A stretch of 64,000 nucleotides of DNA from an uncultured virus (IMG/VR IMGVR_UViG_3300035686_000079) (Duplodnaviria; Heunggongvirae; Uroviricota; Caudoviricetes): IMG/VR virus record IMGVR_UViG_3300035686_000079; one strand, 5' to 3'. Shown here in pieces: positions 19,037 through 64,000 of this stretch. Position 1 is the stretch's first letter, and the number at the start of each line of letters is the position of its first letter. The notes below the pieces were generated by a model, which saw nothing but the letters and a program-made list of their open reading frames with translations, had not been told where the DNA came from and did no database searches. The translations under genes were made by a program, and so were the position numbers.

Positions 19037-19324
19037 AGTGAAAAACTAAGACAAAAACGCTAAAACCCTTTACTTATGAGGGTTAAGGATTGTTCAGCCG
19101 AATAGTCCAACGACAAGACGCTGAACCCCCTAACAAGGTTCAGCGCCTGCTCATGAATATTGCTCAGTTAGCAGTAATCGCATTCTCATTCTAACTCAAG
19201 AGCAATCATTCGCAAAAAACAGTCAAACCCCAGTCCCTGTAAAGGTTCTGGGGTTTTTGTTGTGTTAGAATGTAAGTGTGGCAACAATGTCACATTTAGC
19301 AATGCAACAAAAAGGACAAATAAC

Positions 19325-19816
19325 ATGGTCGCCTTCCACTACATCAATTGGTGCGAGGTTGCTCGGTTCATGGGCAAAGACAATTTTTTAATGCGTCTGA
19401 CGCCTGAGGAAGTCAGATTCTATCTGGCTCCTTATGGCGATATCTGCATCGCAAACAACGGACAAGAGGTTAATGTCTTCTGGTCTATCATTCCCAAACT
19501 GGAACTAAACTTCCCGGAGACGCTAACAACGTGGCAATTCAAGCTACATGAAAGCATCCCTCTCAACACGAGAGACAGCAAGCAAATTGCCACAGAAATT
19601 AAAGCGGCACTTGATAATGCGATCGCTCAGTCGATCGCAGAACAACCGATTCTGTATTCCAGAAAACCGGAGACGGGACTTGAAGTTCGCGTCATCAAAG
19701 AAGACGGCGAGTACATCATCCAGACTCGTTTCCCAGGAACGCTTTGGGAAAACCAGCTGGGAATGACCGATCGGAAACAAGTCCTTATAGAGGCAATAAG
19801 CTTCTGTAGTCTTTAA
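19325..19816 (+). CDS. Hypothetical protein (start reassigned from 19262)
   Basis: AAGGA SD and the AGCAATGCAAC motif precede ATG 19325; its TAA abuts hammerhead 1. Confidence 0.65.
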   Translation: MVAFHYINWCEVARFMGKDNFLMRLTPEEVRFYLAPYGDICIANNGQEVNVFWSIIPKLELNFPETLTTWQFKLHESIPLNTRDSKQIATEIKAALDNAIAQSIAEQPILYSRKPETGLEVRVIKEDGEYIIQTRFPGTLWENQLGMTDRKQVLIEAISFCSL

Positions 19817-19876
19817 CCCGCCTGACGAGGCTAGCGGCGGCTAGCCGAAACTCCCCTTAATAAGGGGAGTAGCGGG
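19817..19876 (+). ncRNA. Type I hammerhead ribozyme, copy 1
   Basis: P1 CCCGC/GCGGG; core CTGACGA; P2 GGCTAGC-ggcg-GCTAGCC; GAAA; P3 CTCCCCTT/AAGGGGAG; GUA triplet with predicted cut after 19871. Confidence 0.93.
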
Positions 19877-19905
19877 ACGCAATCTTTCACACCCGCATAC
19901 TAATT

Positions 19906-20304
19906 ATGCAAGCACATAGCATTGAAGAAATGATGTTAGTCCTTTATCAAAAGGGACTGGTTGACAATCTTGAAAGGTCTCGAAAAGAGGCGCGTGCCTA
20001 CTGGGAACGAATGCAGGGAACACCCGATGCGGAGTCCCCTCACACGGCGGCCCCTTGGCACAACTTTGGCTACATCATTCACCACAATGGGCAACATATT
20101 GCCCATGTGGTTAGCAAACAAGATACTCCAGAAAACCGAGCTAACGCTCACTTAATAGCAGCGGCTCCCGATCTACTGCAATCCGCCAAAGCGGCATTGC
20201 AAGCACTCGTAGCAGCAAATGGTGACGAAGTGGCAATTGCTGACCTCAGGGCGGCGATCGTCAAAGCCACACAAGAAAGCTGCTTGCCCTATGAACAGGG
20301 CTAA
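19906..20304 (+). CDS. Conserved phage protein
   Basis: HTAAPW...ANAHLIAAAPDLL motif; lies between hammerheads 1 and 2. Confidence 0.75.
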   Translation: MQAHSIEEMMLVLYQKGLVDNLERSRKEARAYWERMQGTPDAESPHTAAPWHNFGYIIHHNGQHIAHVVSKQDTPENRANAHLIAAAPDLLQSAKAALQALVAANGDEVAIADLRAAIVKATQESCLPYEQG

Positions 20305-20364
20305 CCCGCCTGACGAGGCTAGCGGCGGCTAGCCGAAACCCCCCTTGTTAAGGGGGGTAGCGGG
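20305..20364 (+). ncRNA. Type I hammerhead ribozyme, copy 2
   Basis: Same core; P3 CCCCCCTT/AAGGGGGG is a compensatory change relative to copy 1; predicted cut after 20359. Confidence 0.93.
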
Positions 20365-20397
20365 ACGCAATTTTTTCACCCCCGCAATAATGCAACC

Positions 20398-20739
20398 ATG
20401 ACCATTCAATATCTACACAACAACTGTCGAGCCTGTAAGGTTTTTCATATAGAAATTGCCAGAAGGCTCAAAGCAATTAAATATCCGGGAGTTGCCAGCT
20501 GCACCTCCTATCAGGATATTTGTGAAATGTTTTGGAGGGATACCATAACACAGTTTTCTTTCTTACTTAATACCCCTGAGTACAGGGGCAAGGTAATTAC
20601 ATGGGCATCCTTTGCCCAACTCATTAGTAATTATTCTGCCGACACAGAAAGAATTCCTCTGATCGTAGACCTTCTTTTACTTGCTGATTCACTCACTAAA
20701 TCAGCAGACAACCCGCCTGATGAGGCTAGCGGCGGCTAG
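20398..20739 (+). CDS. Hypothetical protein whose last codons read into hammerhead 3
   Basis: C-terminal NPPDEASGG is encoded by the ribozyme P1/core/P2. Confidence 0.65.
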   Translation: MTIQYLHNNCRACKVFHIEIARRLKAIKYPGVASCTSYQDICEMFWRDTITQFSFLLNTPEYRGKVITWASFAQLISNYSADTERIPLIVDLLLLADSLTKSADNPPDEASGG

Positions 20740-20771
20740 TCGAAACCCCCCTTATTAAGGGGGGTAGCGGG
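20712..20771 (+). ncRNA. Type I hammerhead ribozyme, copy 3
   Basis: CCCGC-CTGATGA-GGCTAGCggcgGCTAGTC-GAAA-CCCCCCTT...AAGGGGGG-TA-GCGGG; predicted cut after 20766. Confidence 0.92.
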
Positions 20772-20804
20772 ACGCAATTTTTCACACCCCGCAGCAATGC
20801 AACA

Positions 20805-21929
20805 ATGAGTCAGTCTATTCCAGGATTACCTAAAAAAGCTGCCCTAGACAAAGCCTACCAAGGCTTAAACAAAGGACAACCTATTACGGTTGAAATTTAT
20901 TCAGCACAATGCAGTTACGGCGCACAATCTAACTATCAACCAGTACTAACTAAGTTCTGGGTTGAGAAACAAGGGCAGGCTGCTCGCGTTCGACGCTTTA
21001 CTGGCAAGAGCTTAGCCAAGTTAGATGAGTTTTGTCAAAAACTCGTCAACGAAAAAGCGTTTGTATTACTAAGCCCACCTGATGAAGCCACTAGTAGTGG
21101 CTACCCCTTGTCCTTTGGCGACATTACTCCAGGAGACAACTTCACTCGCCTCCCAGTACCTGAAGGCGAAGCTATTCATACAGGGGGACTCTACCTCTCT
21201 CCAGACGGGAAAGAGGTCTGGAAACCATTGGACATTAAACCATATCAAAACTGCGATTTTCGGTATCCCTCGCAAGAGGCACAGTTACTGGAATGCATGG
21301 CAGATCAGCCAGGGTTTCCAAAGAACTGGCGAATTGAACAAGCCAATGGACGCCGATTCCTAGTGCGTCCGCGTTGTCGTATCATTGGGCAGGATCTACC
21401 CTATTCATTTCTATCTCTGGAAAATATTCTGGAGATCGAGCAGTGGATACGATCGCTCAACTCCCAATACTGGGAGGTTAACGACTACATCACTGTTGCC
21501 TTTGATAAAAATATTGGGCAACTGTTTCTTCTAGACCTATCTGCTGCCCAGGTAATGGGAAAGCCAGGTAGTTCAACGGCTTGGCAAGCTGATGATACCG
21601 ATCGGTTTTACCAGTTCGCTACCCAATGTGGATATACGGGGCTGGTCAAACTTCGTCAAGATGCCCGTCATCTGACAAGCTCGATCGCTTGGCTCCAATT
21701 ACAGGGGGACGAATACTCCCCTGTCACTGAAGAACATCGGCATATTTATGCCTCTCGCAATCGTCCCTTAGGCGGCTGGGCGAAAATTCCAGATGCTGTC
21801 TTTATGGATGGCAATTTCCAAGACACGAAGGTTTGGTCATGGGCAGTAACACCCACAGAACTTCCTCCAGACCTGCTACAACGGTACGAGTTAACCTGGG
21901 CGTATAGTCCAATCCCGTACCGCAAGTAA
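20805..21929 (+). CDS. Hypothetical protein, possible protein-kinase-like domain
   Basis: TGGLY...VWK...EAQLL...VND...FLLDLSAA spacing resembles a kinase fold. Confidence 0.6.
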   Translation: MSQSIPGLPKKAALDKAYQGLNKGQPITVEIYSAQCSYGAQSNYQPVLTKFWVEKQGQAARVRRFTGKSLAKLDEFCQKLVNEKAFVLLSPPDEATSSGYPLSFGDITPGDNFTRLPVPEGEAIHTGGLYLSPDGKEVWKPLDIKPYQNCDFRYPSQEAQLLECMADQPGFPKNWRIEQANGRRFLVRPRCRIIGQDLPYSFLSLENILEIEQWIRSLNSQYWEVNDYITVAFDKNIGQLFLLDLSAAQVMGKPGSSTAWQADDTDRFYQFATQCGYTGLVKLRQDARHLTSSIAWLQLQGDEYSPVTEEHRHIYASRNRPLGGWAKIPDAVFMDGNFQDTKVWSWAVTPTELPPDLLQRYELTWAYSPIPYRK

Positions 21930-21949
21930 ACCTTTGCCTACCTAACTAA

Positions 21950-21982
21950 AAACCGCTCAACCTCTCTCAGGTTGGGCGGTTT
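21950..21982 (+). terminator. Intrinsic terminator ending the ribozyme-containing operon
   Basis: AAACCGCTCAACCT...AGGTTGGGCGGTTT. Confidence 0.75.
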
Positions 21983-22055
21983 CTGTTTGTACAGATCTCG
22001 TTTACGGATTCCGTACATACTAAAATAGGTGATATGTCAATGAAGGCTGTCACTA

Positions 22056-22515: not shown

Positions 22516-24114
22516 CTAATTTAAGCCCTTCGGTGATTGGCTTAGCTTTAGCTCACCCGTTCCAATGCTTACTTGCAGTGAAGGTTGATGTTCCGTCATG
22601 CCCGAAGACATGGTGAGGATACCCTCAAGGGCTTTTAGCCATTGAAAAAGTTGAGTGCGTGGGATATCATGGCGTTTCAAGTAACGACCAATTCTATCCC
22701 ACCCACTCCATACATGCCTTGCTTCATCCTCTGGTGTCGCAAGGCATTGTGGTATCTTCTCGCTCAATCTCATGGCTCTACGAGCAATAGCCATTGCCGC
22801 AGATGTTCCACTATTGAGTCCATATTTCTGCATGAACTTAATCATGCCGATGACGCTGGTAAAGGCGGGATTAACTTTGATTAATTCCACACCGTATCTT
22901 CTACATCGAGATTCCAGGGAAGTCCTAAACAAACCTGTGCTGAGGTTGGAAAGCATTTCATTGTAGAGCTTGCTTTCCTCACTCATAGAGGCTTTCTTCT
23001 TGCTGAAGTCCAAGGATTCAATGGCAATAGCACAACCCAATGATTCGGCAAGAGTAACAATCTCGGCAGCAATATCCCTCATCCGGGCTTGGCGTTGTCC
23101 AGCTGTCAGTCCCTTCCACTCGAATGGCATTTCTTGGACATAGCCAATATTTCCATCTCGTTTAACATAGGCAAGAGAAATGTGATCGGCGTTAAAGTCA
23201 ATGCCAATACAACCGTTCTTTCGATTGTGAACGAGTGGAATGTGCGGTACGTAGGTTGTCAGGTGAACGTACCACCCACCAGCCTTGTGTTCTCTCCGGA
23301 AGACTTGAGTTGTTATTGGCTTTTGCATTTCCAGTGCATAGTCGAGGTCGCTTCTACGAGTGCGATTATCTCTATCGCTAACACTGAAATCTAGATCTAA
23401 AAATTCCCCTAACTGCGATCTGAGGCAACGAGGAATCCTAATGTTTAAACGGTAACTTCCCTCATCGTCTAACTTAAAAACTTTGAGCATAGTCCCACCG
23501 CCTGTTTGAGACTTGCCCACACAGTAGAACCGTCCTGAGCGTTTTTCCGCCCAGTCGTGTCGCCACTGTTCGTGAGACTCATAACCGTTTGCTTCCAAGT
23601 GGTGCTGGGCATTAAAAAGTTTGCGAGAGCCGAAGCAAATATGCAGACGTTGCACAGACTCTAATTGCTTAAGTTCCCTCTGGAGCGCTGCTATCTTCTT
23701 GGTTTTAGACTTTAATCCTAGTAGCTTAGTGTCAAACTTCTGCTTGTCTTGATGAGTAGGGAAGCCTTTCTTTGTTGCTGAGGTGAGTTGCTTCTCCAGT
23801 GTTTTGAGTGTATCTTTGGCTCGTTTTAGCTTCTTCTTAATCTGTTCTTTTATCCGGTCAATATTAAGTTCTTTCGCTGTTGTTAGTTGATCGAGACATT
23901 GTTTGGCTTCTGTAGCAATAGAGTCTGCCCATGCCCAATCAATATCAAAGTCTTTCTGAAGGCGTTTTTCTACTTCGTCTTCGGACAATCCTGATTGTAG
24001 CCAATTCAGGGCTGTTCTACGCCATGATTCGTACTTGATGCCAAGAATCTCAAGCGCTCTATGATAATCTATTTGGGCTTCAATTCCTACTTGAGTTCCG
24101 TGGCTTTTTGCCAT
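22516..24114 (-). CDS. tnpB: TnpB-related protein (IS607-associated clade lacking the zinc finger); no transposase nearby
   Basis: ICFGSRKLFNAQ, RuvC GIDFN and AIESLDF, VNPAFTSVIG, AAMAIARR. Confidence 0.85.
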   Translation of the reverse strand: MAKSHGTQVGIEAQIDYHRALEILGIKYESWRRTALNWLQSGLSEDEVEKRLQKDFDIDWAWADSIATEAKQCLDQLTTAKELNIDRIKEQIKKKLKRAKDTLKTLEKQLTSATKKGFPTHQDKQKFDTKLLGLKSKTKKIAALQRELKQLESVQRLHICFGSRKLFNAQHHLEANGYESHEQWRHDWAEKRSGRFYCVGKSQTGGGTMLKVFKLDDEGSYRLNIRIPRCLRSQLGEFLDLDFSVSDRDNRTRRSDLDYALEMQKPITTQVFRREHKAGGWYVHLTTYVPHIPLVHNRKNGCIGIDFNADHISLAYVKRDGNIGYVQEMPFEWKGLTAGQRQARMRDIAAEIVTLAESLGCAIAIESLDFSKKKASMSEESKLYNEMLSNLSTGLFRTSLESRCRRYGVELIKVNPAFTSVIGMIKFMQKYGLNSGTSAAMAIARRAMRLSEKIPQCLATPEDEARHVWSGWDRIGRYLKRHDIPRTQLFQWLKALEGILTMSSGMTEHQPSLQVSIGTGELKLSQSPKGLN

Positions 24115-24372: not shown

Positions 24373-25749
24373 TTAAATAAACAGCCGCTGGTGCGGAGGT
24401 GTGAACTGTTTAAAGAACTGGAGTTGATATCCAATCCCATTAAGTCCAGCCAATGGTGTCTGGGCCGTCCACAGACGATCGGGTTGGGTCAGTAGCGTAG
24501 GAACTACAAATTCCCGATACTGACGCCCGGTGAGGAAAACAATCTCAGCTCCTGGAGCTGCGATCGATTCTAGTTGCTGAACGACACGTTCAGACCACTC
24601 ACGCCGATGACGAACACCTTTTCCTCTAAGGGTTTGGTCGTATGGCTCAAGAACGGTATCCGGATGGACGATGCCGTGCTTAGCCGAAATGGCATACCAA
24701 TTGTGGTTATTTACTTCCACATAGCGGCGAGCTGCTCGCCACCACTGCGAATTGTACAGCTGTTTTGCTGGTACTGGGTGGTCTAGCTTTGGATCGACAC
24801 AACTCACAAGCGTGATTCGCTTGCGGCTTATGATATTTCGATGGGCGGCGATTTGCTGACCTAAGTTATGGGCAATACGCCCGTAATTAGCCTGACGGGT
24901 TCCACTGGTTCTCGAATCAAAGCCTTCGAGTTGCAGTCGCTCACATACTGGGCATTCGCAAGTTGGTGCAATGGGCGTTTCTCCAGGATGAACTACATCG
25001 TAATCCTCTAGCTTGTGTCCATTTGCAAGAAGCCATTTATTTTTTCTAATAGCCATTTGCTGATAGGTACAGCCATCGAAAGATTCAATGCCTAGCCTTG
25101 TCCAGGCTTCAGCATACCTAGGAGAATTTAATCCCAGTACGTGAATTGCACAGTCAGCTGGCAATGCCTTCCGAATAGCTGCCACAAGATTTACGCAGTA
25201 TTGCAGATTAGAGGCGCTGGGAACCAATCCCCCCACTGCAATATACCGATAGCCAATTTTGTAGAGCCACTCGGCATAAACGATACGCTCGGGAATTGAT
25301 AAACCATGACAAACAGCCATGGGCACAAATCCAGTGTCGCGACTAATTTCCAAAAATTCTTCCGCACTATCGCGGTTAAATCTTCTACGAAATGCCATTT
25401 GGTAGGGGTAATCTCCGCCAAATGTACCTTGCAACTTTGGCGACAAGATATGATCTGGCGCGATCGCAATATCACCTGGATCGCCTACCGCCTTGATTCG
25501 GTTGAGAATCCATTGGGGCGTTACCAGGCTTTTGGCGATCATTGGAACCTCTAGCTCTAAATAAGTTCTAGCTCCGCAATCCCACTGCTTATGTCCTGAT
25601 GGCACAGTCTTGTGTTTATAGCTCAGCGAGAGCAGCCAGCCTTCCGGCTTTAAATAAAACTCCAAAAATTCGTACAACGGGATATCGCGCCCCGGCAAAC
25701 GAATGCAGTCATCATGCCCTACGTTTGCGTAGAATTTCGATTTAAGCAT
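24373..25749 (-). CDS. tRNA-guanine transglycosylase/DpdA-like protein fused to a C-terminal DUF6884-like domain
   Basis: WDCGA, APDH, AVGGLV, IHVLG, SFDG, zinc motif CECPVC...HNL; C-terminal LVSC...AKQLYNS...ISAKHG...EPYDQTL...PLAGL.GIGYQL. Confidence 0.8.
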   Translation of the reverse strand: MLKSKFYANVGHDDCIRLPGRDIPLYEFLEFYLKPEGWLLSLSYKHKTVPSGHKQWDCGARTYLELEVPMIAKSLVTPQWILNRIKAVGDPGDIAIAPDHILSPKLQGTFGGDYPYQMAFRRRFNRDSAEEFLEISRDTGFVPMAVCHGLSIPERIVYAEWLYKIGYRYIAVGGLVPSASNLQYCVNLVAAIRKALPADCAIHVLGLNSPRYAEAWTRLGIESFDGCTYQQMAIRKNKWLLANGHKLEDYDVVHPGETPIAPTCECPVCERLQLEGFDSRTSGTRQANYGRIAHNLGQQIAAHRNIISRKRITLVSCVDPKLDHPVPAKQLYNSQWWRAARRYVEVNNHNWYAISAKHGIVHPDTVLEPYDQTLRGKGVRHRREWSERVVQQLESIAAPGAEIVFLTGRQYREFVVPTLLTQPDRLWTAQTPLAGLNGIGYQLQFFKQFTPPHQRLFI

Positions 25750-48259: not shown

Positions 48260-49292
48260 CCCGAATCCAGCTACCTGATTCCGACTCGATCAATAGCCGC
48301 CCTTTGTACTGTTCGCAGATGTTCTGCACGATCGCCAGTCCCAAGCCCAGCCCATCTTTGTCCCAGAACTTCATGTAGGGTCCGATGCGAGCAATTTGCT
48401 CAGCCGTCAGTCCTACTCCTTCGTTGTAGACAGAAATTCGGTGATATCCGGGTGCTTCGTGCCGATCGTCAATTACAACAGGCGAACCCGGAGCGGAGAA
48501 CTTAAATGCGTTGTCCACAATGCAAGCAAGAATCTTGGACAGAGCTGAACTGGGCAACGCAATGGGTATAGGAATCAAATTGCACTGAACATCTTGCGAT
48601 CGTTGATATTGAATCCCAAAATCTGAAGCTATTTTTGTTCCTACTATAAATAAATCTGAAGAAGAATTCTCTAAAGGCTTAATCCCCAGTTCTTTGGAGG
48701 TTTCAGACGCATAATAACTCATCCAATTTTCAGTCAGCCTATTTTGTCGCAAGGCTGACTTCTGGATATCATCAACTAATTCCTTGGCCTCATCAGGCAG
48801 ATCCATCTCCTTCAGCAGGGAAATATTGGCAAGTATGCCATTCAACGGAGTTCTGAGTTCATGAGGAAGAACCTCATGAATTACAGACTGCATATGAGTA
48901 AGCTTGAAGTCAAACTCCTTATCTCGCCTACCCTTCTTTTCTAGTTGAGTAGCAATACTCTTAAGTAACTCCGAACGGGTAAAGGGTTTTGTAAGGTAAT
49001 CTTCTGCTCCTGATTCCATCCCTAGCCGCGTATCGGCAGGAGCCGCTTTAGCCGTCAGGAAAATGAATGGAGTGTCAATCGATCGCTCTCGAAGTCGAGC
49101 CAGTACCTCCATTCCATCCATGTGAGGCATCATGATGTCGCACAGGATTAAATCTGGAGAACAGGATAGAGCGAGGTCAACTCCCTCAATCCCGTTGGTT
49201 GCTTCGATAACATCAAACTCGTCGATAGCGAGAATATCAGCAATGTTCTCGCGTACCTCTGGATTGTCCTCGATGACTAATATTGTTGGCAT
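48234..49292 (-). CDS. Hybrid response regulator-histidine kinase (REC-HisKA-HATPase)
   Basis: ILVIEDN, ILCDIMMP, FLTAK, YLTKPF; HELRTPL; VDNAFKF; GLGLGLAI. Confidence 0.93.
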   Translation of the reverse strand: MPTILVIEDNPEVRENIADILAIDEFDVIEATNGIEGVDLALSCSPDLILCDIMMPHMDGMEVLARLRERSIDTPFIFLTAKAAPADTRLGMESGAEDYLTKPFTRSELLKSIATQLEKKGRRDKEFDFKLTHMQSVIHEVLPHELRTPLNGILANISLLKEMDLPDEAKELVDDIQKSALRQNRLTENWMSYYASETSKELGIKPLENSSSDLFIVGTKIASDFGIQYQRSQDVQCNLIPIPIALPSSALSKILACIVDNAFKFSAPGSPVVIDDRHEAPGYHRISVYNEGVGLTAEQIARIGPYMKFWDKDGLGLGLAIVQNICEQYKGRLLIESESGSWIRVNVVLPAA

Positions 49293-54985: not shown

Positions 54986-57900
54986 ATGGATGACGATTTC
55001 GATCAATTTGGTATTTCGGCTCTCTATTCCTTTGCGATCGAAAAGAACGCAATCACCAACATGCAAAAGGTGAGGGGAGAGATTCGGGCACTGGAGGACG
55101 ATTTCAGCCAGATGATCCGAGCCTTCGAGCAGGGTAACTTCTCTGCCCCGATCGCCAAGGAAACAGCGACGGTCAAAAAGTCGATGCAGACCGTATCGAC
55201 AGCGGCGGGGCAAAGTGCCGACAATATGAAGTTGGTGAGAAAGGCGATCGCACCACTCAAACAGGAGTTTCGCGCTCTAAAAGCCGCATCTAGCAACATC
55301 ACCTTTGGAGAGCTTAACGACGACCAACAGTTTAAAGATGCCTCCAGGGCGGTTAAACAGTACGTTCGGGACTTGGAGGCATTACAGCAACAGATTGGTG
55401 GTACAACAGCTCTAGAACGTGAGTTCACAGAAGTTCTCAAGCGTCAGCAGACGATCGCGCAAGGGCGAGTCGATCTAGCAGAGGCGGAACGACGAGCCGC
55501 CAGAGCATCTCAAAACTTAGGCAGTGCCCAAGCCCTTCAAGGTGCGGGGAAAGCAATCCTAAATACCTTGTCTGAGCCGATGGAAGCGGCGCAAGAATTG
55601 CAGCAAGGGTTGGGGACGATCGCAAAACTGGCGGGTGATATCAGCCCTCAAGGATTAACTGACGTTAAGAACGAAATCCTTGGGTTGAGTGCCGCGATGG
55701 CAACGGCAGACACCCAAGTCAGTAGCGTCTTTGAAGATTTGGCGGGGGCGGGGAAGGCATTTAATGACGCGATCGACCCTAAAACCGGACGCCGTGCCAT
55801 TCAGGAGCGGATGCGCGAAGTCGAACAAATCCTCAAAAATAAGGCAGCACTGGACATCACAACGGGAGCCGCCACTCAGTTAAATATCACACTCGGTTCC
55901 ATCTATAAAGACAGTCTACCGAACTATGCTGGTGGAGTAGTAGAGGTTAACGCCCGTGCCGCTAGCTCCATCAACGAGCTTAGCGATAAGTTGAGCGACG
56001 TGCGTATATCTGCCGAAGATGTCATCCCAGTGATGAATGTGGTAATGAACACCATTGGGGATGCAGCAAACTTTCCAGTAGACCAGATTGCCGCATTCAG
56101 TGCAGCAGTAAGCGCATTAGGGACGATCGAACCGGAAGCGGCTGGCAGCTTTTTCAACCGATTTAGTGCTGCTATCAGTAAAAATCCTGCTGCATTTGTT
56201 GAGAAGCTGGGATATGAATCAGCAGAGGCATTTGATAAGGCACTAAATGAGGACAAGCTAGATATAATTGTCCGGATTGCAGAGCAATATAAATCTATTA
56301 ATGGTGAATTAGAGAGAGGTAAATTCCTAGGAAAAGGGGGGTTGGGGATAGCCTCAGCTCAAGACCAAAAATTAATTCAAGGACTATCTAATAACATTAA
56401 AGTTCTCAAAGAAGCCAGGGTCGTTGCAAGAGAAGGCTTCTACGGGGAGGAAGGAAAAGAATTATCGGTACAAGCGGAGTTTAACCGTGTCATTCAAACC
56501 TCTGCATTTCAGGCTGAGCGGTTTAATAAAACAGTAACGGCGCTCAAAGATACGATCGGATTGGCGGTGCAAGAAGCCATTACGCCGATGCTGGAAACAT
56601 TGTCCAACACAATGGATTTTGTCCTACAGCTAACCCAAAAGTTCCCTGGAGTAACTAAAGCAGTATCATTGGGTGCATTAGCATTTGGGGCATTAGCTGC
56701 TGCTGCCGGAACAGCGGGAGTAGTTTTATTTAGTCTGGAACAGGCTGGAGCCGTTGCCACTATTGCGCTTGGCTCGATGGAGCGCTCCATGCTGCCCCTT
56801 ACGGGTTTCTTTCAGACTGCCCAAACAGCTCTAAGCGGCACGAATCCACTGGAGACGTTCTTTCACAACAACACCAAATTAGCCACTGACTTTGGTGATG
56901 CAGCAACACTGAACTTCAAGGAAACGGGGCGTGGGCTACGAGCGCTTGCAACCCAGGCGATCAGTACGGGACGTGCTTTTGTTGTATTGTCTCGCTCAAT
57001 CATTTTATCCCCGCTCGGAATTGCCATAGGCAGCTTCATTCTGCTCAATACTTTACTAGAGCAAGTTGTACCGGGATTTAATCTATTAGGAGTAGTGCTA
57101 GGGGCTATTGCCGCACCGTTTGGATTTATCTACGGACTACTAAAAGGGTTAACTGAGTCTCTCCTAGAATTTTTAGGCGTTACTAGCGGTGGCACGCTGG
57201 GAGCGATCGCACCATTATTTCAGACTATTAGCAATGCAATTCAGGTTGCTGCCAAAAGTTTCATGTTGTTTGCCAGCTCTGGAGAACGAGTAGGGCAGGC
57301 GCTGGGACATGCCATCGTTTTCCCCTTCAGATTTGCTGGTGAAACGATCGTCAACATCTGGAACAAGACGATCGGTGCAATGCGGAATATCTTGAGTCCG
57401 TTTGCTGATTTTGTAAATTTAATTGGATTATTATTAGTCTCTTTCTTAGCCGAAGCATCACCAGGACCAACCTACTGGATTCGCAAGAAATGGACTTATA
57501 CCATTGATTACTTGCAAGGGCTGTTCGGACATTTGGTTCAATCAGCAGCAAGTGTTGGAACGAGGATCAGGGATACATTCACTTCAATTTTCCCAACTAC
57601 AGCTATCTCTCAAGAATTTACAGGGATTGCTGGAGCAGCGACAGACAGTGGCAACGTCATTATCAATGGACTAGGCTCGGCTTTCCGGTTTATTGTTGGA
57701 GTACTCAGTGCGGTTATCCATGCCGTAGACCTTGTTAACAAGGCGTTTCTCAATATTGGTGGCAACACAACAGTTGACGAACGAATTGCCGCCAGACGGG
57801 AAATCTTTAGTGGATTTATTAAAGTCCTGATTGGCGTTGGTCACGCCTTCGTCTTTGTGGGCAAGGCTATAGCCTCTTTCGTTCAGTTTGAGAAACAAAT

Positions 57901-60900
57901 GATCGAAGGGGCAATTGAGAACCTTGATTTGCTGGGATTCACTTTACTTACCTTGTCTTCACTGCCGATGACACTGTTAAGGCAACTGGAAGAAGGGTTT
58001 GAACGATATATTCCACAACTAGGCTTTTTGGCAGCCAAGGGCATACCTAGAGCTATTTTGTTTGCTTTACCCAATCTAGTCGCCTTGGCTATCAGCACGG
58101 GACTGATTAAGGCGTTTGAGAGAGGGTTTAGTGATGCACTAGATGCTCTACCCAGTAGAATCAAGAGTTTTGTCGATCGTCTGTACGGATTGCTGACACC
58201 AGAGGTAGTCGGTCAAATCAACAAAGTTGTCAGTGCCACTGTCACGGAACTCGGACAAGCCATGCCAGAGGTGTTTGGCAAAGGGTTTACCTTTGAATTT
58301 AATTTAGACGACTTACGCCTAGGGATTCACCGATTTGTTGATGGTCCGTTGGTCAGCTTTATCGATTACCTACACAAGGTTGGCGATACAGCGAAAGAGG
58401 TGGGGGCAAATATCAAGGCGGTTATTGAGCCTCTACTGCGATTCAAATTAGGCGATATTATCCCACTCTTGTCGTTTCTACCACCGCTAATCCCTGCCTT
58501 CATTGGAATGAGAGCGGCAATTGATGCAATTATCAACCTAGCGGCATCACCTGCACTACAGGGGCTGTACAATTTTTTCTCTGGCTCGATATTACCTGCG
58601 GCACTTAAAACTCTGACTGCTATAGGCGCTGTAGTCGCCTACATTGGCGGCGCTTTGGTGCTGTATCCCGTCGCAATGCTGCAAGTGGCATTGCGTGGCG
58701 TAACCTCCGCTGTTGGAGCATTAATCACCCAAGTGCAGGTTCTTATTCCACTGTTACCGGAAATCGCCAGGAGACTGATTGAAACATTCGGTCGAGCAGT
58801 AGCACAGGTGATTCTCAATTCAGCTACAGCACTAGCTGGACTACTGCGACAAGTTCCCTATATTGGCGACGTTTTAGCTACAACATTAACCAGGACAGTT
58901 GAATTAGTCGTTTACGCCTTCCCCGTCTATGTGAATTTGATGGTTAAGGCGCTCAGCCCTGTGTGGACGGCATTTAAAGCCGTAGCTGGTGCCTATGGCA
59001 AAGTACTAGGAGACTTATTCAAAGGGATTGCTTACTTCGTTGACAAGGGGCTGAAACCACTAGGCCCAATTATTGCCAACGTACTAGACCCGCGATCGGC
59101 GTTTAAGTTATTGGGCTTGTACCTCCGCACGAAAGGATTCAAGGGGATTATTAAACCTGGGTTACTAGGGCTAAGCCCATTTGATCTACTCTTTTCTCCT
59201 ATAACCCCAAGGACGATCGCCTCTTACTCAGCAGAAGAGTTGAGTAAGCTACCTCCAGCCATGCTCAAGGCATTGGAGGCACAGTCTAAACGAGCTAATT
59301 TGCTCAAACCGTTCTTGGGTCCGATCGAATCTATTCGCCGCACACTCGTTGATGCACTAAAACTTGGATTCAGAGGGGCGGTCGATACGGCATTCCCCAT
59401 CAACATAATCAAGGCAAAGCAGGCAGAATATCTGAAAGTCCTAGCTAGTGGCCGAAGCCTTAAGATTGCCGAGCGCTACGGACTACCGCTAGCCGATCTA
59501 ATCGACACCCCGCTGGCAAACCTGGCCAAAGGCATCATGCTGATTTCGCCTTGGCTTCAAATCATTGGAAGAGCCGCAAACACGACATTATTCTGGTACA
59601 CAATCTTAAAACCCCTAGACAGGGAGATGTTGACGGCAATCGCCAACACGGAAGTCTGGGGTCACAAGTTAACCATAATTGCCGTAGCACTAGGAATTGC
59701 TCGCTTTGCTGTAGTTAATCTCACCGATGCCATATTCGGGCTGGCTAAATACATTCCAGTGGCTTTATTCGGAACTCTGGAGTTCTTTGACAAGCTGGGA
59801 ATCACTATCGGAGTTGTTACTCACGAAATTGTTGGCATCGGCTCTATCCTGGCAAATGTCATCAAGTTTTCAATTATCAACCCCCTGACCTTAATTCCCT
59901 TGGGCATAACAGCAGCACTTAATGGGGTGCTGATCGGACTGCGGGAAATGCTCAAGATGATTAAGGCAGAAACCCAAAAGTATGGGGATGCCATCATCGC
60001 GGCAATGCACGGTAATTTCCTGCCATTAGGTAAGGCGCTAGTTGAAGACCTGATCGTCACCCCGGCACGATTGGCAACGATCGCCTTTACCAATACGATC
60101 GGTCGTGTATTTAATTTGCTACTGCGTGGAGTTCGGGTAACAGTCGAGGAAATCGGAAGGTTAATTCGCCATCCGATTGCCGAAACCATGCGTTTGATCG
60201 GATTACTGGGTGGGGTGTTTTCTGATGTCCTAGAACAGGTCAATGTTTATATCAAGTTGCTGCAACTAGATAAACTGGCTAACTTCATCCGCCAAAACTG
60301 GATGCAGCTAACCCCTGTCGTAACAACGGCATTGAGATTACTAGGGGTAATCACTAACCTCCAGTTTGGTATTGGTGCATTAGTTGGAGTGACAGCATTC
60401 CTGATTCACGAGTACCAAACCGGATTCCAAACCATTAATTCAATTATTGAGGGATTGCAGCATCCGATCGATCTTCTCAATTCAGCACTTCAAGGCATGT
60501 TGGGGTTCTTGAATCTTTACATCAGTCCGGAAATGACAGGTGTGATTGCCAACTTAACAGCTGAATTCGTTCGGTTGCTGCCAGTGATTACGGGCGGCAT
60601 TTTCTTTGTGGCGTTACTAATCAAGCGCAACATTGGTGATGCCATCAATATGGTAGTCGGTGGCTTCTTGCGAGTCGTTGGGGAAATCCAACGCGCAATT
60701 ATGGCAATGGTTGGGTTCAAAGACAGTATTGTTGATGCTGCAACTAGTGCCAGGAGTCAGGTATTTTTTGGCGAGCAGGTTCATAATATCCGCCGACAGT
60801 CCACTTTTGGAGGATTGAAAAATCCCTTCGCTTACTCCAGAGACGCAGAACAGCAACGTAAGGGTGTTTACCTCGGTGAGCAACGAGTCACTAAATCTAA

Positions 60901-63900
60901 GGCGGCGTTAAGCTACCAGAAAGAGATCGAGAAGGCGATTGAACGAGAAGTCGAAAACATTAGAAAAGGGTACCTCAAGGCTGCACGATCGGGCGATGAG
61001 AACGAAAGGCGCAAAGTCCTAGGTGGGCAAGTTGCTAGATTGAACGCTCAGGGCGAGGTAGAAGAAACTCACACGATTAAACCTCTAGTAGAGAGGCAGC
61101 GTAACCGTTTTGGCATAGAAACGAACCAACTCACCGACCTAGGGGAAGATGCCGCTAGACGGATGGCTAGGAATGCGATTCAAGGTTCTACCGCTGAGGA
61201 ATACAGTAAAATTCGTCGAAATGCAGCAAGAGAAGCTGGGTTAGGCTCTGCATTTAAAGGGGTTGATCCCAATATTTCTACTGAAGATTATGACAAAGTT
61301 CTTCAGAAGCTTGCTCGCGGGGGAGAAAAAGAAGTTAGGGCGATGCTGAATGAGTTTCAAGAAGCTCTAGAAAACGCCCATATTCAAACCCAGAATGTCG
61401 ATACTTTGTATGTCAAAAAAATCGTAAGTGGTAGCGATCCAAAAACTCTCAAGTCTCAACCATACAACTACAAAGCATTTGACGAGCAGCTAACTGCATT
61501 TAAGGATGCTAAAGGATTAAGTTCTAAACAAAAATCATATCTAGATACACTTACGCCACTTGAGAGCATAAAAAATAACTTGATATCGGCGCAAAGGTTA
61601 AATAAAAACCGTTCGCAACAATTAAAAGACAGTGTTGGAACAGCACTCCAGCCCAGTAATTTCCCTGACAACGCGACTCCATCTTCTCAAGACTTCCAGA
61701 CTTTCCTTGCAAATAAAACGCCAGAGTACAAGAATGCATTAGACAAAGTTAGGACTGACGACATAGCTTACGAAAACAAGGTCAAAGAAATATTAAGTGA
61801 ACTAGCAATAGAACTTAATGAAGTCGTTTCATCTACAATCAAAGATTTTAAAGACTTTGAAGAGTTAAACAAGAAACTATTAGCAGCTGACATTCCTACC
61901 AGCGACGCCCAAATCTCTACAGGTATTAACGTCTTGTACGATGGCGTCAGAGACGTGGTCAATGACGCTCAACACGCAACTCAACGGGCAGAAGCGACTC
62001 GTAAATCAATTGGTGAATTGTTATTTGGTTTCACGGGTATCCCTCAAGTCATCGAAACATTTAAAGAGAACCGGAGAATCTACAAACGATCGGAGCAAGT
62101 AGCCCGTCGAGCCAAGCGTTTGGGCGACCAAGATAAAGAGGAGCTAGAGGCATTACTCTCTGCCAGACGCCGAGGTTTGGCGGCTTTGATGAGCAATGAA
62201 GGGTTTACCTACTCTGACGACTTCAAGTCAAACGCTCCACGAGGAATGAAGGAGTTCTTCAAGGAGAAGGGCATCGACACGAAGCAGCAGCAGATGCTGG
62301 AGAACTTTATAACGAAGACCAGGAAGTTGGAACGATCGTTTGCTCCAGCAGATGTTACCGAGACATTTAAAGCCCTGTCTGGGCTGGCAGGGAAATACAG
62401 GAGCGAGGTTGTCCGAGCGGAGGATGGATTAAGTGAAGGGATGTTCCGATTCCGTGAAGCTATCTCCAGTGCAGGTTTTGGTGGTGATGCCGAAAGAAGT
62501 TTACTTTATAAGTTACTGGAGAAAGGGCGTAGTGGCTTAACACCGCAACAAGACAAACAACTTGAAGAGGCATTCACTCGAATCGGCACAAAAATCGGAA
62601 GTGTTGAGCGAATGCAAGAATCCTTGGACAAATCAGGCTTAATCAACACCGCACTCCATATTATTAAAACAGGTAAATTGGGAGGCAGTATCGACGCCGA
62701 GCGCCTCGATCTAGCTAAAGCCCTAGGTGTCACTGTAGGGGCACTGAAGCGGATTGACAAAACTCCCCTGAATAACCCAATAGACCAGCTCAAAGCTAAC
62801 TTTGAAGTCTTTGTAGAGAACCTGACACGCCAAGCCAAGAAGTTCGACCGATCGATTGTCCACCAATTGGAAAACTTAGACAAAGCTCTCAACACGCAGC
62901 TGCTTATCCCCACACCTGTTGGCAAGCTCATCTCGCAACCTATTTTGTGGTTGTACACGAGTACCCGCGATCAGTTCCTTAAAGGGATTCGGGCAGGGGC
63001 ACCAATCCTTAGCTCGGTTGCCAGAGAGGCAAAAGATATATTTGGGTTCCCAGAGTTAACTAAGCAATTCCAGTCGATCCGCGCTCAATTTAGAGATGCA
63101 ACCAAGAGCAGCCTGCCGGATATTTTGGCAAGAAGTACGATTCCCGGCAAACGTCGGTATGGGAAGGCAACGCCGGAGCTGAGAGCTCAGTTTCAGTCTC
63201 GAATGATGGAGTCGCTACAAAAAACTCCTGACTATACTCCAGCTAAGGCGTCTCAGGTGATGGAAATCTTCCTGAAAGATGCCAAGGGAACTTCAATTGA
63301 GCAGCAACTTAAGAGCGCAGGCTTAGATCCCAAGGCGGTAGCTAAGTCCCTAGAAAAAGCACTAGGAGCGACTGAGGAACAAGTCAAGAAAATCATTGAA
63401 GACAATAATTACAGTGCCAAATTAGCGTACCCCTACCAAGTGTATTTCCTCAAAGGGTTGCCAGGGCTGATGGCAGGAGCCGCTAAGGACATCTGGAAGG
63501 TTACCAATAAGGTACTTGGTTTAGCTGGTCGAGTACTGGGCAAGCCACTGAGAAGCGTAGCCATGGACGTTATTGGCACGTTTGGGGTTGGTTTGGTAAC
63601 GCGGCTCTCTGAGTTTTCTAATAAACTAGGCGATCGCATCCAAGTTGGGCTTGAGAATTTAAGTCAGCAAAGTCGCAAACTGTTCGGACAAAACAATGTA
63701 TTTGAAAAAGTACTCAAGCGTTTTTCTGGTTTTCTAGGAAGCATGGGACGCCGCACGGGAGATTACCTATCGGAGCAAGCCAAGCAGTTACAGAGCAACC
63801 CAAAAACTAAAACTCAAATGATTATTGATGCCGGGATGCGACTGTTTCGAGGTATAGCCAATACCTTCGATGTAGCTCGCAAGGCATTGGCTAAACCCAG

Positions 63901-64000
63901 AGCATTATTTGGCAACTTATTTAACTCTGTTAAGCAGTTTTTTTCTAGCCTATTCAGTGGAAAGGAACTTAAGGAAGTTCGAGCGGCAAGGGAAAAAAGT
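54986..64000 (+). CDS. Very large tail tape-measure protein, truncated by the window end (at least 3005 codons; absent from the ORF track)
   Basis: ATG 54986 (MDDDFDQFGISALYSF...); the same frame is open at the window end (...RAAREKS) and the track reports no closed long + ORF here; TP901-like core (EPMEAAQELQQGLGTIAKL...DLAGAG), Ala/Gly/Leu-rich hydrophobic middle. Confidence 0.85.
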   Translation, partial: MDDDFDQFGISALYSFAIEKNAITNMQKVRGEIRALEDDFSQMIRAFEQGNFSAPIAKETATVKKSMQTVSTAAGQSADNMKLVRKAIAPLKQEFRALKAASSNITFGELNDDQQFKDASRAVKQYVRDLEALQQQIGGTTALEREFTEVLKRQQTIAQGRVDLAEAERRAARASQNLGSAQALQGAGKAILNTLSEPMEAAQELQQGLGTIAKLAGDISPQGLTDVKNEILGLSAAMATADTQVSSVFEDLAGAGKAFNDAIDPKTGRRAIQERMREVEQILKNKAALDITTGAATQLNITLGSIYKDSLPNYAGGVVEVNARAASSINELSDKLSDVRISAEDVIPVMNVVMNTIGDAANFPVDQIAAFSAAVSALGTIEPEAAGSFFNRFSAAISKNPAAFVEKLGYESAEAFDKALNEDKLDIIVRIAEQYKSINGELERGKFLGKGGLGIASAQDQKLIQGLSNNIKVLKEARVVAREGFYGEEGKELSVQAEFNRVIQTSAFQAERFNKTVTALKDTIGLAVQEAITPMLETLSNTMDFVLQLTQKFPGVTKAVSLGALAFGALAAAAGTAGVVLFSLEQAGAVATIALGSMERSMLPLTGFFQTAQTALSGTNPLETFFHNNTKLATDFGDAATLNFKETGRGLRALATQAISTGRAFVVLSRSIILSPLGIAIGSFILLNTLLEQVVPGFNLLGVVLGAIAAPFGFIYGLLKGLTESLLEFLGVTSGGTLGAIAPLFQTISNAIQVAAKSFMLFASSGERVGQALGHAIVFPFRFAGETIVNIWNKTIGAMRNILSPFADFVNLIGLLLVSFLAEASPGPTYWIRKKWTYTIDYLQGLFGHLVQSAASVGTRIRDTFTSIFPTTAISQEFTGIAGAATDSGNVIINGLGSAFRFIVGVLSAVIHAVDLVNKAFLNIGGNTTVDERIAARREIFSGFIKVLIGVGHAFVFVGKAIASFVQFEKQMIEGAIENLDLLGFTLLTLSSLPMTLLRQLEEGFERYIPQLGFLAAKGIPRAILFALPNLVALAISTGLIKAFERGFSDALDALPSRIKSFVDRLYGLLTPEVVGQINKVVSATVTELGQAMPEVFGKGFTFEFNLDDLRLGIHRFVDGPLVSFIDYLHKVGDTAKEVGANIKAVIEPLLRFKLGDIIPLLSFLPPLIPAFIGMRAAIDAIINLAASPALQGLYNFFSGSILPAALKTLTAIGAVVAYIGGALVLYPVAMLQVALRGVTSAVGALITQVQVLIPLLPEIARRLIETFGRAVAQVILNSATALAGLLRQVPYIGDVLATTLTRTVELVVYAFPVYVNLMVKALSPVWTAFKAVAGAYGKVLGDLFKGIAYFVDKGLKPLGPIIANVLDPRSAFKLLGLYLRTKGFKGIIKPGLLGLSPFDLLFSPITPRTIASYSAEELSKLPPAMLKALEAQSKRANLLKPFLGPIESIRRTLVDALKLGFRGAVDTAFPINIIKAKQAEYLKVLASGRSLKIAERYGLPLADLIDTPLANLAKGIMLISPWLQIIGRAANTTLFWYTILKPLDREMLTAIANTEVWGHKLTIIAVALGIARFAVVNLTDAIFGLAKYIPVALFGTLEFFDKLGITIGVVTHEIVGIGSILANVIKFSIINPLTLIPLGITAALNGVLIGLREMLKMIKAETQKYGDAIIAAMHGNFLPLGKALVEDLIVTPARLATIAFTNTIGRVFNLLLRGVRVTVEEIGRLIRHPIAETMRLIGLLGGVFSDVLEQVNVYIKLLQLDKLANFIRQNWMQLTPVVTTALRLLGVITNLQFGIGALVGVTAFLIHEYQTGFQTINSIIEGLQHPIDLLNSALQGMLGFLNLYISPEMTGVIANLTAEFVRLLPVITGGIFFVALLIKRNIGDAINMVVGGFLRVVGEIQRAIMAMVGFKDSIVDAATSARSQVFFGEQVHNIRRQSTFGGLKNPFAYSRDAEQQRKGVYLGEQRVTKSKAALSYQKEIEKAIEREVENIRKGYLKAARSGDENERRKVLGGQVARLNAQGEVEETHTIKPLVERQRNRFGIETNQLTDLGEDAARRMARNAIQGSTAEEYSKIRRNAAREAGLGSAFKGVDPNISTEDYDKVLQKLARGGEKEVRAMLNEFQEALENAHIQTQNVDTLYVKKIVSGSDPKTLKSQPYNYKAFDEQLTAFKDAKGLSSKQKSYLDTLTPLESIKNNLISAQRLNKNRSQQLKDSVGTALQPSNFPDNATPSSQDFQTFLANKTPEYKNALDKVRTDDIAYENKVKEILSELAIELNEVVSSTIKDFKDFEELNKKLLAADIPTSDAQISTGINVLYDGVRDVVNDAQHATQRAEATRKSIGELLFGFTGIPQVIETFKENRRIYKRSEQVARRAKRLGDQDKEELEALLSARRRGLAALMSNEGFTYSDDFKSNAPRGMKEFFKEKGIDTKQQQMLENFITKTRKLERSFAPADVTETFKALSGLAGKYRSEVVRAEDGLSEGMFRFREAISSAGFGGDAERSLLYKLLEKGRSGLTPQQDKQLEEAFTRIGTKIGSVERMQESLDKSGLINTALHIIKTGKLGGSIDAERLDLAKALGVTVGALKRIDKTPLNNPIDQLKANFEVFVENLTRQAKKFDRSIVHQLENLDKALNTQLLIPTPVGKLISQPILWLYTSTRDQFLKGIRAGAPILSSVAREAKDIFGFPELTKQFQSIRAQFRDATKSSLPDILARSTIPGKRRYGKATPELRAQFQSRMMESLQKTPDYTPAKASQVMEIFLKDAKGTSIEQQLKSAGLDPKAVAKSLEKALGATEEQVKKIIEDNNYSAKLAYPYQVYFLKGLPGLMAGAAKDIWKVTNKVLGLAGRVLGKPLRSVAMDVIGTFGVGLVTRLSEFSNKLGDRIQVGLENLSQQSRKLFGQNNVFEKVLKRFSGFLGSMGRRTGDYLSEQAKQLQSNPKTKTQMIIDAGMRLFRGIANTFDVARKALAKPRALFGNLFNSVKQFFSSLFSGKELKEVRAAREKS

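Follow-up and report, generated by a model that had tools for sequence, protein, structure and literature searches.

A hammerhead array and its last reading frame

We analysed a 64,000-nucleotide (nt) stretch of DNA from an uncultured virus of the Caudoviricetes (IMG/VR record IMGVR_UViG_3300035686_000079), referred to here as the window, and focused on an open reading frame (ORF) at 20805–21929 on the plus strand that encodes 374 amino acids (aa). This ORF is the last gene of an operon in which small genes alternate with type I hammerhead ribozymes, and residues 90–100 of its product are encoded by a hammerhead-like stretch. The original prediction for the locus, made from the letters alone, held that the ORF is a fusion of two former cassettes of ~90 and ~280 aa joined through a decayed fourth ribozyme. 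The comparisons described below indicate that the ORF is almost certainly such a fusion, and they make it likely that the joint contains a ribozyme relic, by whichever route it arose. The features of the operon are as follows.

19262–19816 (+), cassette ORF 1, 184 aa from GTG at 19262, with an ATG at 19325; its TAA stop abuts stem I of hammerhead 1
19817–19876 (+), type I hammerhead 1, with CUGACGA and GAAA present; inferred cleavage at 19871/19872
19906–20304 (+), cassette ORF 2, 132 aa; its TAA stop abuts hammerhead 2
20305–20364 (+), type I hammerhead 2; inferred cleavage at 20359/20360
20398–20739 (+), cassette ORF 3, 113 aa; reads into hammerhead 3, ends in NPPDEASGG and stops within stem II
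20712–20771 (+), type I hammerhead 3, with a G·U pair in stem II; inferred cleavage at 20766/20767
20805–21929 (+), fused ORF (ORF 4), 374 aa, consisting of N part, linker and C part
20805–21071 (+), N part of the fused ORF, residues 1–89, an orphan and putative former cassette
21072–21102 (+), hammerhead-like stretch and putative relic, with stem I 5′ strand (A)GCCCAC, CTGATGA and a stem II hairpin of 7 base pairs (bp); encodes the linker S90–G99
21102–21929 (+), C part of the fused ORF, Y100–K374, a stand-alone family elsewhere
21950–21982 (+), terminator-like hairpin of 14 pairs, downstream of the last ORF and closing the operon

Each intact hammerhead is placed between two co-oriented small ORFs, and three successive gaps are occupied in this way. 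ORF 1 has no family in Pfam, PHROG or NCBIfam searches, and ORF 2 matches phrog_1273, a family of unknown function (E 7.4e-12). ORF 3 has no stop ahead of hammerhead 3 and continues through 20710–20739, with CAA at the place where copies 1 and 2 have TAA; its last nine residues and its stop codon are supplied by stem I, the core and stem II of the ribozyme.

The three hammerheads are nearly identical, and a pattern search found three where 0.01 was expected. Stems I, II and III measure 5, 7 and 9 bp in our own descriptor scan, and the copies display the hallmarks of type I, namely both core strands, three helices, the A15.1–U16.1 pair, H17 and an open stem I. At minimum energy, hammerhead 3 folds into the canonical three-way junction (−35.3 kcal/mol, z −4.04), and a compensatory C–G to U–A pair in stem III distinguishes copy 1 from copies 2 and 3. 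None of the three intact copies gave a match at Rfam gathering thresholds. Their best family was RF03152, the RAGATH-1 hammerhead (a type I variant), at 25.8–28.8 bits (28.8 for hammerhead 1) against a gathering score of 56.3. RAGATH-1, which reportedly stems from the 2017 survey of Weinberg et al., shares the order of elements with the intact copies (stem I, CUGAUGA, short stem II, GAAA and long stem III), whereas the extra 5′ hairpin of its model aligns poorly to them and the stretch at the joint does not match it. The exact intact-ribozyme pattern had 0 matches in genome and viral contigs.

The leaders that follow the ribozymes also share features. After each inferred cut, the freed 3′ strand of stem I, GCGGG, is pairable with CCCGC 15–16 nt downstream (pairing regions 19872–19896, 20360–20385 and 20767–20792), which would place a 5-bp hairpin at the extreme 5′ end of the downstream mRNAs. 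Such a hairpin could protect the cut 5′ end or block religation. The leaders also have GCAATGCAAC in common just ahead of the start codons.

Two parts of the 374-aa reading frame

A protein search with the whole ORF yielded 35 homologues, 34 of which are stand-alone proteins of 210–316 aa that correspond to the C-terminal 53–75% of the query (mostly three quarters). The single full-length relative, P0001 (373 aa), belongs to a 98% identical strain; full-length homologues across diverse taxa, which the original prediction had named as the outcome at odds with a fusion, were not found. The closest stand-alone relatives are P0002 (283 aa, 70% identity), P0003 (63–64%) and P0004 (57–58%). In their alignment with the query (A2), similarity sets in at Y100 and the start methionines of these three proteins fall at residues 93–95, inside the hammerhead-like stretch. 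When the two parts were compared separately, as had been proposed, the C part was found to stand alone in 34 of the 35 homologues, which lack the N part and start at the joint, and the N part was an orphan.

The same boundary was seen at the DNA level. In tblastn searches the match began at residue 101 in four of five genome loci and at residue 90 or later in all five. Among 50 metagenome and 2 viral loci, most matches likewise started at residue 90 or later and none before residue 76; where the start lay at residues 76–89, the upstream frame consisted of unrelated sequence. In 14 loci that were inspected, a methionine lies at most ~10 residues before the conserved LPLxIRD, except in L051 and L029, the first of which has a different N-terminal extension of ~230 aa and the second one of ~70 aa. 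P0031 has a short N-terminal extension that is dissimilar to the N part. In a Leptolyngbyaceae genome (G001), the C-part homologue starts 62 nt after recG; a search with P0002 found the family in this one of 401 cyanobacterial genomes. The relative in L035 (2998–5053) is split by an inserted gene resembling those of insertion sequences (IS), and that in L001 (2989–4134) carries a C-terminal extension of ~100 aa.

The N part was assessed through a second strain. The region is present in two biocrust-metagenome runs and in none of the RNA runs listed. Of the two, X1 is probably where the window comes from and X2 belongs to another study; the differences listed for X2 reproduce the amino-acid changes of P0001. 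Over codons 1–67 of the N part (45.7 synonymous and 155.3 non-synonymous sites), X2 shows 11 synonymous and 3 non-synonymous changes together with one 3-nt deletion, corresponding to a dN/dS of about 0.08. Because synonymous changes outnumber non-synonymous ones in this way, the N part is, on these substitution counts, a real coding sequence under purifying selection. Purifying selection acts on both parts, as seen in two strains. The strain-difference table on which the comparison draws omits 20 less well supported differences and lists 14 of the 15 differences of record 8. An X2 contig bridges 20978–21171 with 4 differences and no gap; since it comes from a second study, the joint is not an assembly artefact.

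The two parts also differ in their predicted structure. In an AlphaFold (AF2) model built on A2, residues 1–100, for which only two sequences informed the prediction, have predicted local distance difference test (pLDDT) values of 29–57; those of residues 84–96 are below 50, and no secondary structure is present at 83–99. From residue 101 onwards, blocks of 10 residues have values of 81–96 except for two (67 and 64). Structural matches in the ESM Atlas begin at residues 97–109, and the neighbours belong to Pkinase/APH clusters with template modelling (TM) scores of 0.40–0.54, under the bar. A Foldseek search of the PDB with the C-part model gave 5 matches at E ≤ 0.001, the best being CK2 alpha (3q9z_A, E 5e-4, probability 1.00). 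By model, the C part bears a likeness to the protein-kinase fold, as represented by CK2 alpha, the kinase domain of a class III lanthipeptide synthetase (7wj7_A) and granulovirus PK-1 (6vvg_B), at low TM scores of 0.25–0.34 over the whole query, root mean square deviations of 6–13 Å and identities of 11–16%. Sequence searches with the C part gave no match in Pfam, PHROG, NCBIfam or PDB.

The hammerhead-like stretch at the joint

The joint resembles the 5′ half of a hammerhead. TAAGCCCAC occupies 21070–21078, 5′ of the core, and is followed by CTGATGA at 21079–21085, an exact C3-U4-G5-A6-N7-G8-A9. Directly after A9 comes a perfect 7-bp stem II helix formed by AGCCACT (21086–21092) and AGTGGCT (21096–21102) around an AGT loop. 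The core, helix, loop and in-frame position are as originally described, with the correction that the motif starts at 21070–21072 and not 2–4 nt later, at 21074. The stretch is translated as S90-P-P-D-E-A-T-S-S-G99-Y100, in the same frame relative to the core (CCN-CCT-GAT-GAR) in which ORF 3 reads into hammerhead 3 to end in NPPDEASGG, so that the parallel drawn earlier between SPPDEATSSG and this tail holds. The tail S/NPPDEAS/T is the only likeness between the fused protein and the ORF 3 protein. A TAA at 21070–21072 parallels the stops that abut copies 1 and 2; here it lies in a different frame from the ORF, and that frame stays open for just 16 codons upstream.

Nothing usable remains of the 3′ half, in agreement with the earlier observation that this half is missing. 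In place of the 3′ core G12-A13-A14, stem II is followed by ACCCCTTG, and no GAA with stem II closure occurs within 400 nt. AGCCCAC has no partner of at least 5 bp downstream in the ORF, and the stem I strand has none within 400 nt. The 3′-half hammerhead motif was detected only at the three intact copies, and the joint has neither stem III nor a cleavage triplet NUH. Because GAAA, stem III, cleavage site and stem I partner are all absent, the relic is predicted to be catalytically dead. ACCCCTT at 21103–21109, directly 3′ of the hairpin, had been taken as a stem III remnant after a GAAA reduced to A. These bases are read as TAC-CCC-TTG, or Tyr-Pro-Leu, and YPL is also present at this alignment position in P0002, the nearest of the stand-alone homologues; the bases are therefore part of the downstream gene, and no reduced GAAA is needed. 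Two other arrangements were rejected. Completion of the half ribozyme in trans is ruled out, as stem II forms a closed hairpin and the bases immediately after it do not belong to the core, a geometry that established hammerhead architecture does not allow to be completed in trans. A pairing suggested by a covariance model, in which AGTGGCT, following ‘UA’, would act as the stem I 3′ strand and an A–U pair would compensate a G-to-A change, is less parsimonious, needs two in-frame deletions and has weak 3′ similarity (the 3′-half search gave no match there).

The combination of core and hairpin is rare. The window contains 40 CTGANGA sites on both strands, and only three of them, intact copies 1 and 2 and the joint, continue directly into a perfect hairpin of at least 5 bp; copy 3 falls outside this count through the G·U pair in its stem II. 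When the window was shuffled 500 times with its dinucleotides preserved, the mean number of sites with a hairpin of at least 7 bp was 0.022, and 11 of the shuffles contained one. Codon shuffles of the ORF gave the core with an adjacent perfect 7-bp hairpin anywhere in 15 of 100,000 cases and within 30 nt of the joint in 1 of 100,000. In an ungapped 17-mer comparison, 21072–21088 shares 14 of 17 positions, including the exact CTGATGA, with the intact AACCCGCCTGAYGAGGC; matches at this level are expected 0.16 times per window, and one unrelated match lies at 48787 on the minus strand. Of the seven stem II pairs, three are identical in register to those of the intact copies, and in the other four both strands have changed. 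When the 105-nt ribozyme unit is aligned locally with the ORF, the best placement is at 21074–21088.

Several results weigh against a ribozyme origin of the joint. Its stem II departs from the intact copies at the four changed pairs, and its closing pair is A–U rather than G–C. The local alignment is not significant (p about 0.2): 392 of 2000 codon shuffles attain its score, and so do 26 of 106 other pieces of the window. Rfam returned no match for 21040–21104 up to E 10, and our own covariance model of the three intact copies (R1) omitted the joint in a whole-window run; applied to the 64-nt stretch alone, R1 scored 4.7 bits (E 0.084) with a different pairing. At −9.8 kcal/mol (z −1.26) the hairpin energy is ordinary, and an equally good fold was obtained for 18 of 200 shuffles. 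Genome and viral contigs contain the exact sequence of the core and stem II at 3 loci, two of them the same sequence and all unrelated; they correspond to a Flavobacterium terminator and an RNase-like coding region of Actinobacillus, and such strings therefore arise without ribozymes. In the databases searched, no relative has the two genes separate, and none has an intact hammerhead between them or at the joint, the arrangement that the original prediction had suggested looking for. The N part alone, searched as 91 aa, has no stand-alone relative among proteins of 50–160 aa; a comparison with 1.84 billion representatives likewise gave no convincing relative and one weak match of 27 residues. 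Our scanner detected no type I or III hammerhead in 57 loci related to the C part (L001–L057), and Rfam detected no hammerhead in the five genome loci; association with ribozymes is thus not a general trait of the C-part family. The scanned loci are distant relatives, the metagenome ones being no closer than 56–60% identity, and the DNA of P0001–P0004 is not among them.

Origin of the joint and related systems

Taken together, the core-plus-hairpin statistics and the position of the stretch argue for a relic, while Rfam, the covariance model and plain alignment are silent. We consider the ribozyme ancestry of the joint likely and a single internal deletion its probable route. The operon would once have had five cistrons, every gap between them occupied by a self-cleaving type I hammerhead, and the upstream cassette would already have been reading into its own ribozyme in the CCN-CCT-GAT-GAR frame, as ORF 3 does today. 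One deletion of ~80–100 nt may then have extended from the position immediately after the stem II of the fourth ribozyme (left breakpoint 21102/21103) to about codon 7 of the next gene; this size is estimated by analogy with copy 3, in which 63 nt separate the end of stem II from the ATG. The deleted segment would have comprised GAAA, stem III, the cleavage site, the 3′ strand of stem I, a leader of ~30 nt, and the start codon and first residues of the kinase-like gene. Because the upstream cassette read into the ribozyme frame, the deletion would have joined the two reading frames, and the 5′ half of the ribozyme (21072–21102) would now be translated as the ten-residue linker SPPDEATSSG. The predicted outcome is a transcript cut at three places instead of four (19871/72, 20359/60 and 20766/67) and one two-part protein of 374 aa, with an orphan N part, a ribozyme-derived linker and a kinase-like C part. 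For the wider claim that the array evolves by ribozyme loss, this would be a single event.

Other explanations were weighed against these data. If there had been no fusion, the 374-aa form would be ancestral, or the two parts would be made separately from an internal start, and the short homologues would be truncations or proteins with miscalled starts. Gene callers often pick internal starts, and TTG at 21108 could in principle initiate translation; yet initiation there would drop the conserved Tyr-Pro, and no ribosome-binding motif was seen before it. Moreover, the upstream frame runs into a stop between a few and a few dozen codons from the start in the inspected loci other than L051 and L029, the N part is missing from all loci as well as from the short database proteins and has no relatives of its own, and both parts share one frame in two strains, which makes this explanation exceedingly improbable. 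It is also quite unlikely, though less so, that the fusion is real and the linker came from ordinary intergenic or coding sequence with a chance CTGATGA and hairpin. The motif was first spotted by eye once the intact copies were known, its similarity in sequence only is not significant, and the same core and hairpin occur by chance in unrelated genomes. A chance origin has to contend with the codon shuffles and with the absence of any further such site from the 64 kb, the true ribozymes aside. It would also have to place the motif on the strand of hammerhead 3, 308 nt downstream of it, in the exact position expected of an intercistronic element (all three other gaps of the operon have a hammerhead) and in the frame of the ORF 3 read-in.

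The remaining alternative retains the relic and changes its history: a foreign kinase-like gene could have been joined to the last hammerhead by illegitimate recombination, without there ever having been a fifth ribozyme-separated cistron of that kind. The ribozyme-free surroundings of the C-part family in the 57 related loci fit such a capture, as do its varied contexts (after recG in G001, IS-broken in L035, with a different extension in L051) and its presence in a single cyanobacterial genome, as expected of a mobile gene. In X2, contigs cover ribozyme units and ORF 4 but not ORFs 1–3, which, for contigs only, is no proof of absence; the cassettes upstream of the same gene appear different there with the ribozyme units kept, which suggests that cassettes are exchanged by recombination at these units. 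Capture would nevertheless need the same breakpoints as the deletion, its donor context is not known, and the ribozyme-free loci leave out the nearest relatives P0002–P0004, ahead of which a hammerhead is possible. We therefore regard capture as rather unlikely and prefer the deletion within the array.

Gene fusion by loss of a stop codon and an intercistronic spacer is a general mechanism in which the leftover spacer becomes a linker. The present case resembles it in that two neighbouring cistrons of one operon became one reading frame. It differs in that the leftover spacer is apparently the 5′ half of a catalytic RNA and that ORF 3 shows the intermediate state. A literature search found no hammerhead remnant at a gene fusion and no half ribozyme serving as an interdomain linker.

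The array itself is of a kind already known. Clusters of hammerheads on either side of single genes or short gene blocks have been described in prophages, and in A. tumefaciens the anti-restriction gene ardA is flanked by a trio of them (Perreault et al. 2011, PLoS Comput Biol, PMC3088659). As in the arrays treated in the portions of that paper used here, several same-strand hammerheads in phage-type DNA separate small genes that follow one another and vary in identity, and a long transcript is expected to be cut into gene-length mRNAs. The array in the window follows a RadC-like gene among DNA methylases. Here, in addition, a probable half ribozyme is translated within a fused protein, a situation that those portions of the paper do not describe.

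The observation, an evolutionary one of modest weight, is mostly confirmed, and it leaves the working concept of the hammerhead unchanged. Phage hammerhead arrays have been known since 2011, and their origin, turnover and death are hardly documented. In this operon three states stand side by side: termination immediately ahead of the ribozyme (ORFs 1 and 2), read-in (ORF 3) and a probable end state, the fusion. The locus offers a concrete example of non-coding catalytic RNA sequence that would have turned into coding sequence, as well as a natural internal control for cleavage assays, with three live sites and one dead site predicted on one transcript. The fused protein, an orphan 89-aa part and a kinase-like domain encoded in a phage accessory region, is uncharacterised. 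It is conceivable, although we consider it very unlikely, that cassette arrays act as a workshop for multidomain proteins, in which deletion of half a ribozyme welds cassettes together and the front half of the RNA becomes a flexible peptide linker. If this held more widely, half-hammerhead relics would be expected at the domain joints of other phage accessory proteins.

The metagenome runs contain further variants of the array. A further copy of the ribozyme family is present in X1 and X2 (loose ends at 20726 and 20784), at a depth of up to 53 in X2. Its stem II is GACTAGC/GCTAGTC, with an A–U pair where copy 3 has G·U; the sequence ahead of stem II is unusual (CCTGAAGATGA), and the leader differs. 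One X2 contig joins 20808 to 19815, that is, a leader and ATGA straight into another hammerhead unit; this junction, seen in contigs only, would be two tandem ribozyme units without a gene between them.

The surroundings of the operon are those of a phage. The window encodes a terminase large subunit, a sliding-clamp homologue and C5 and N6/N4 DNA methylases, and further a TGT/DUF6884 protein, an M15 peptidase and two TnpB-like genes; the RadC-like gene lies just 5′ of the hammerhead array. Neither this gene nor ORF 2 has relatives in the viral contigs, blastn of 19200–22000 against plasmids gave no match, and tblastn of the fused ORF against phages gave none. On the minus strand, 24265–24371 matches the ‘trpB ncRNA motif’ of Rfam (RF04312) below threshold, at 48.8 bits against 59 (E 8.7e-4). 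It lies between the TGT/DUF6884 gene (24373–25749) and a TnpB-related gene of 532 aa (22516–24114), which reaches 51.8 bits with NCBIfam guided_TnpB, below the cutoff. At the far end, an ORF of more than 3005 aa (54986–64000, plus strand) runs out of the window, and its first 1005 aa have no Pfam match at E ≤ 1e-5.

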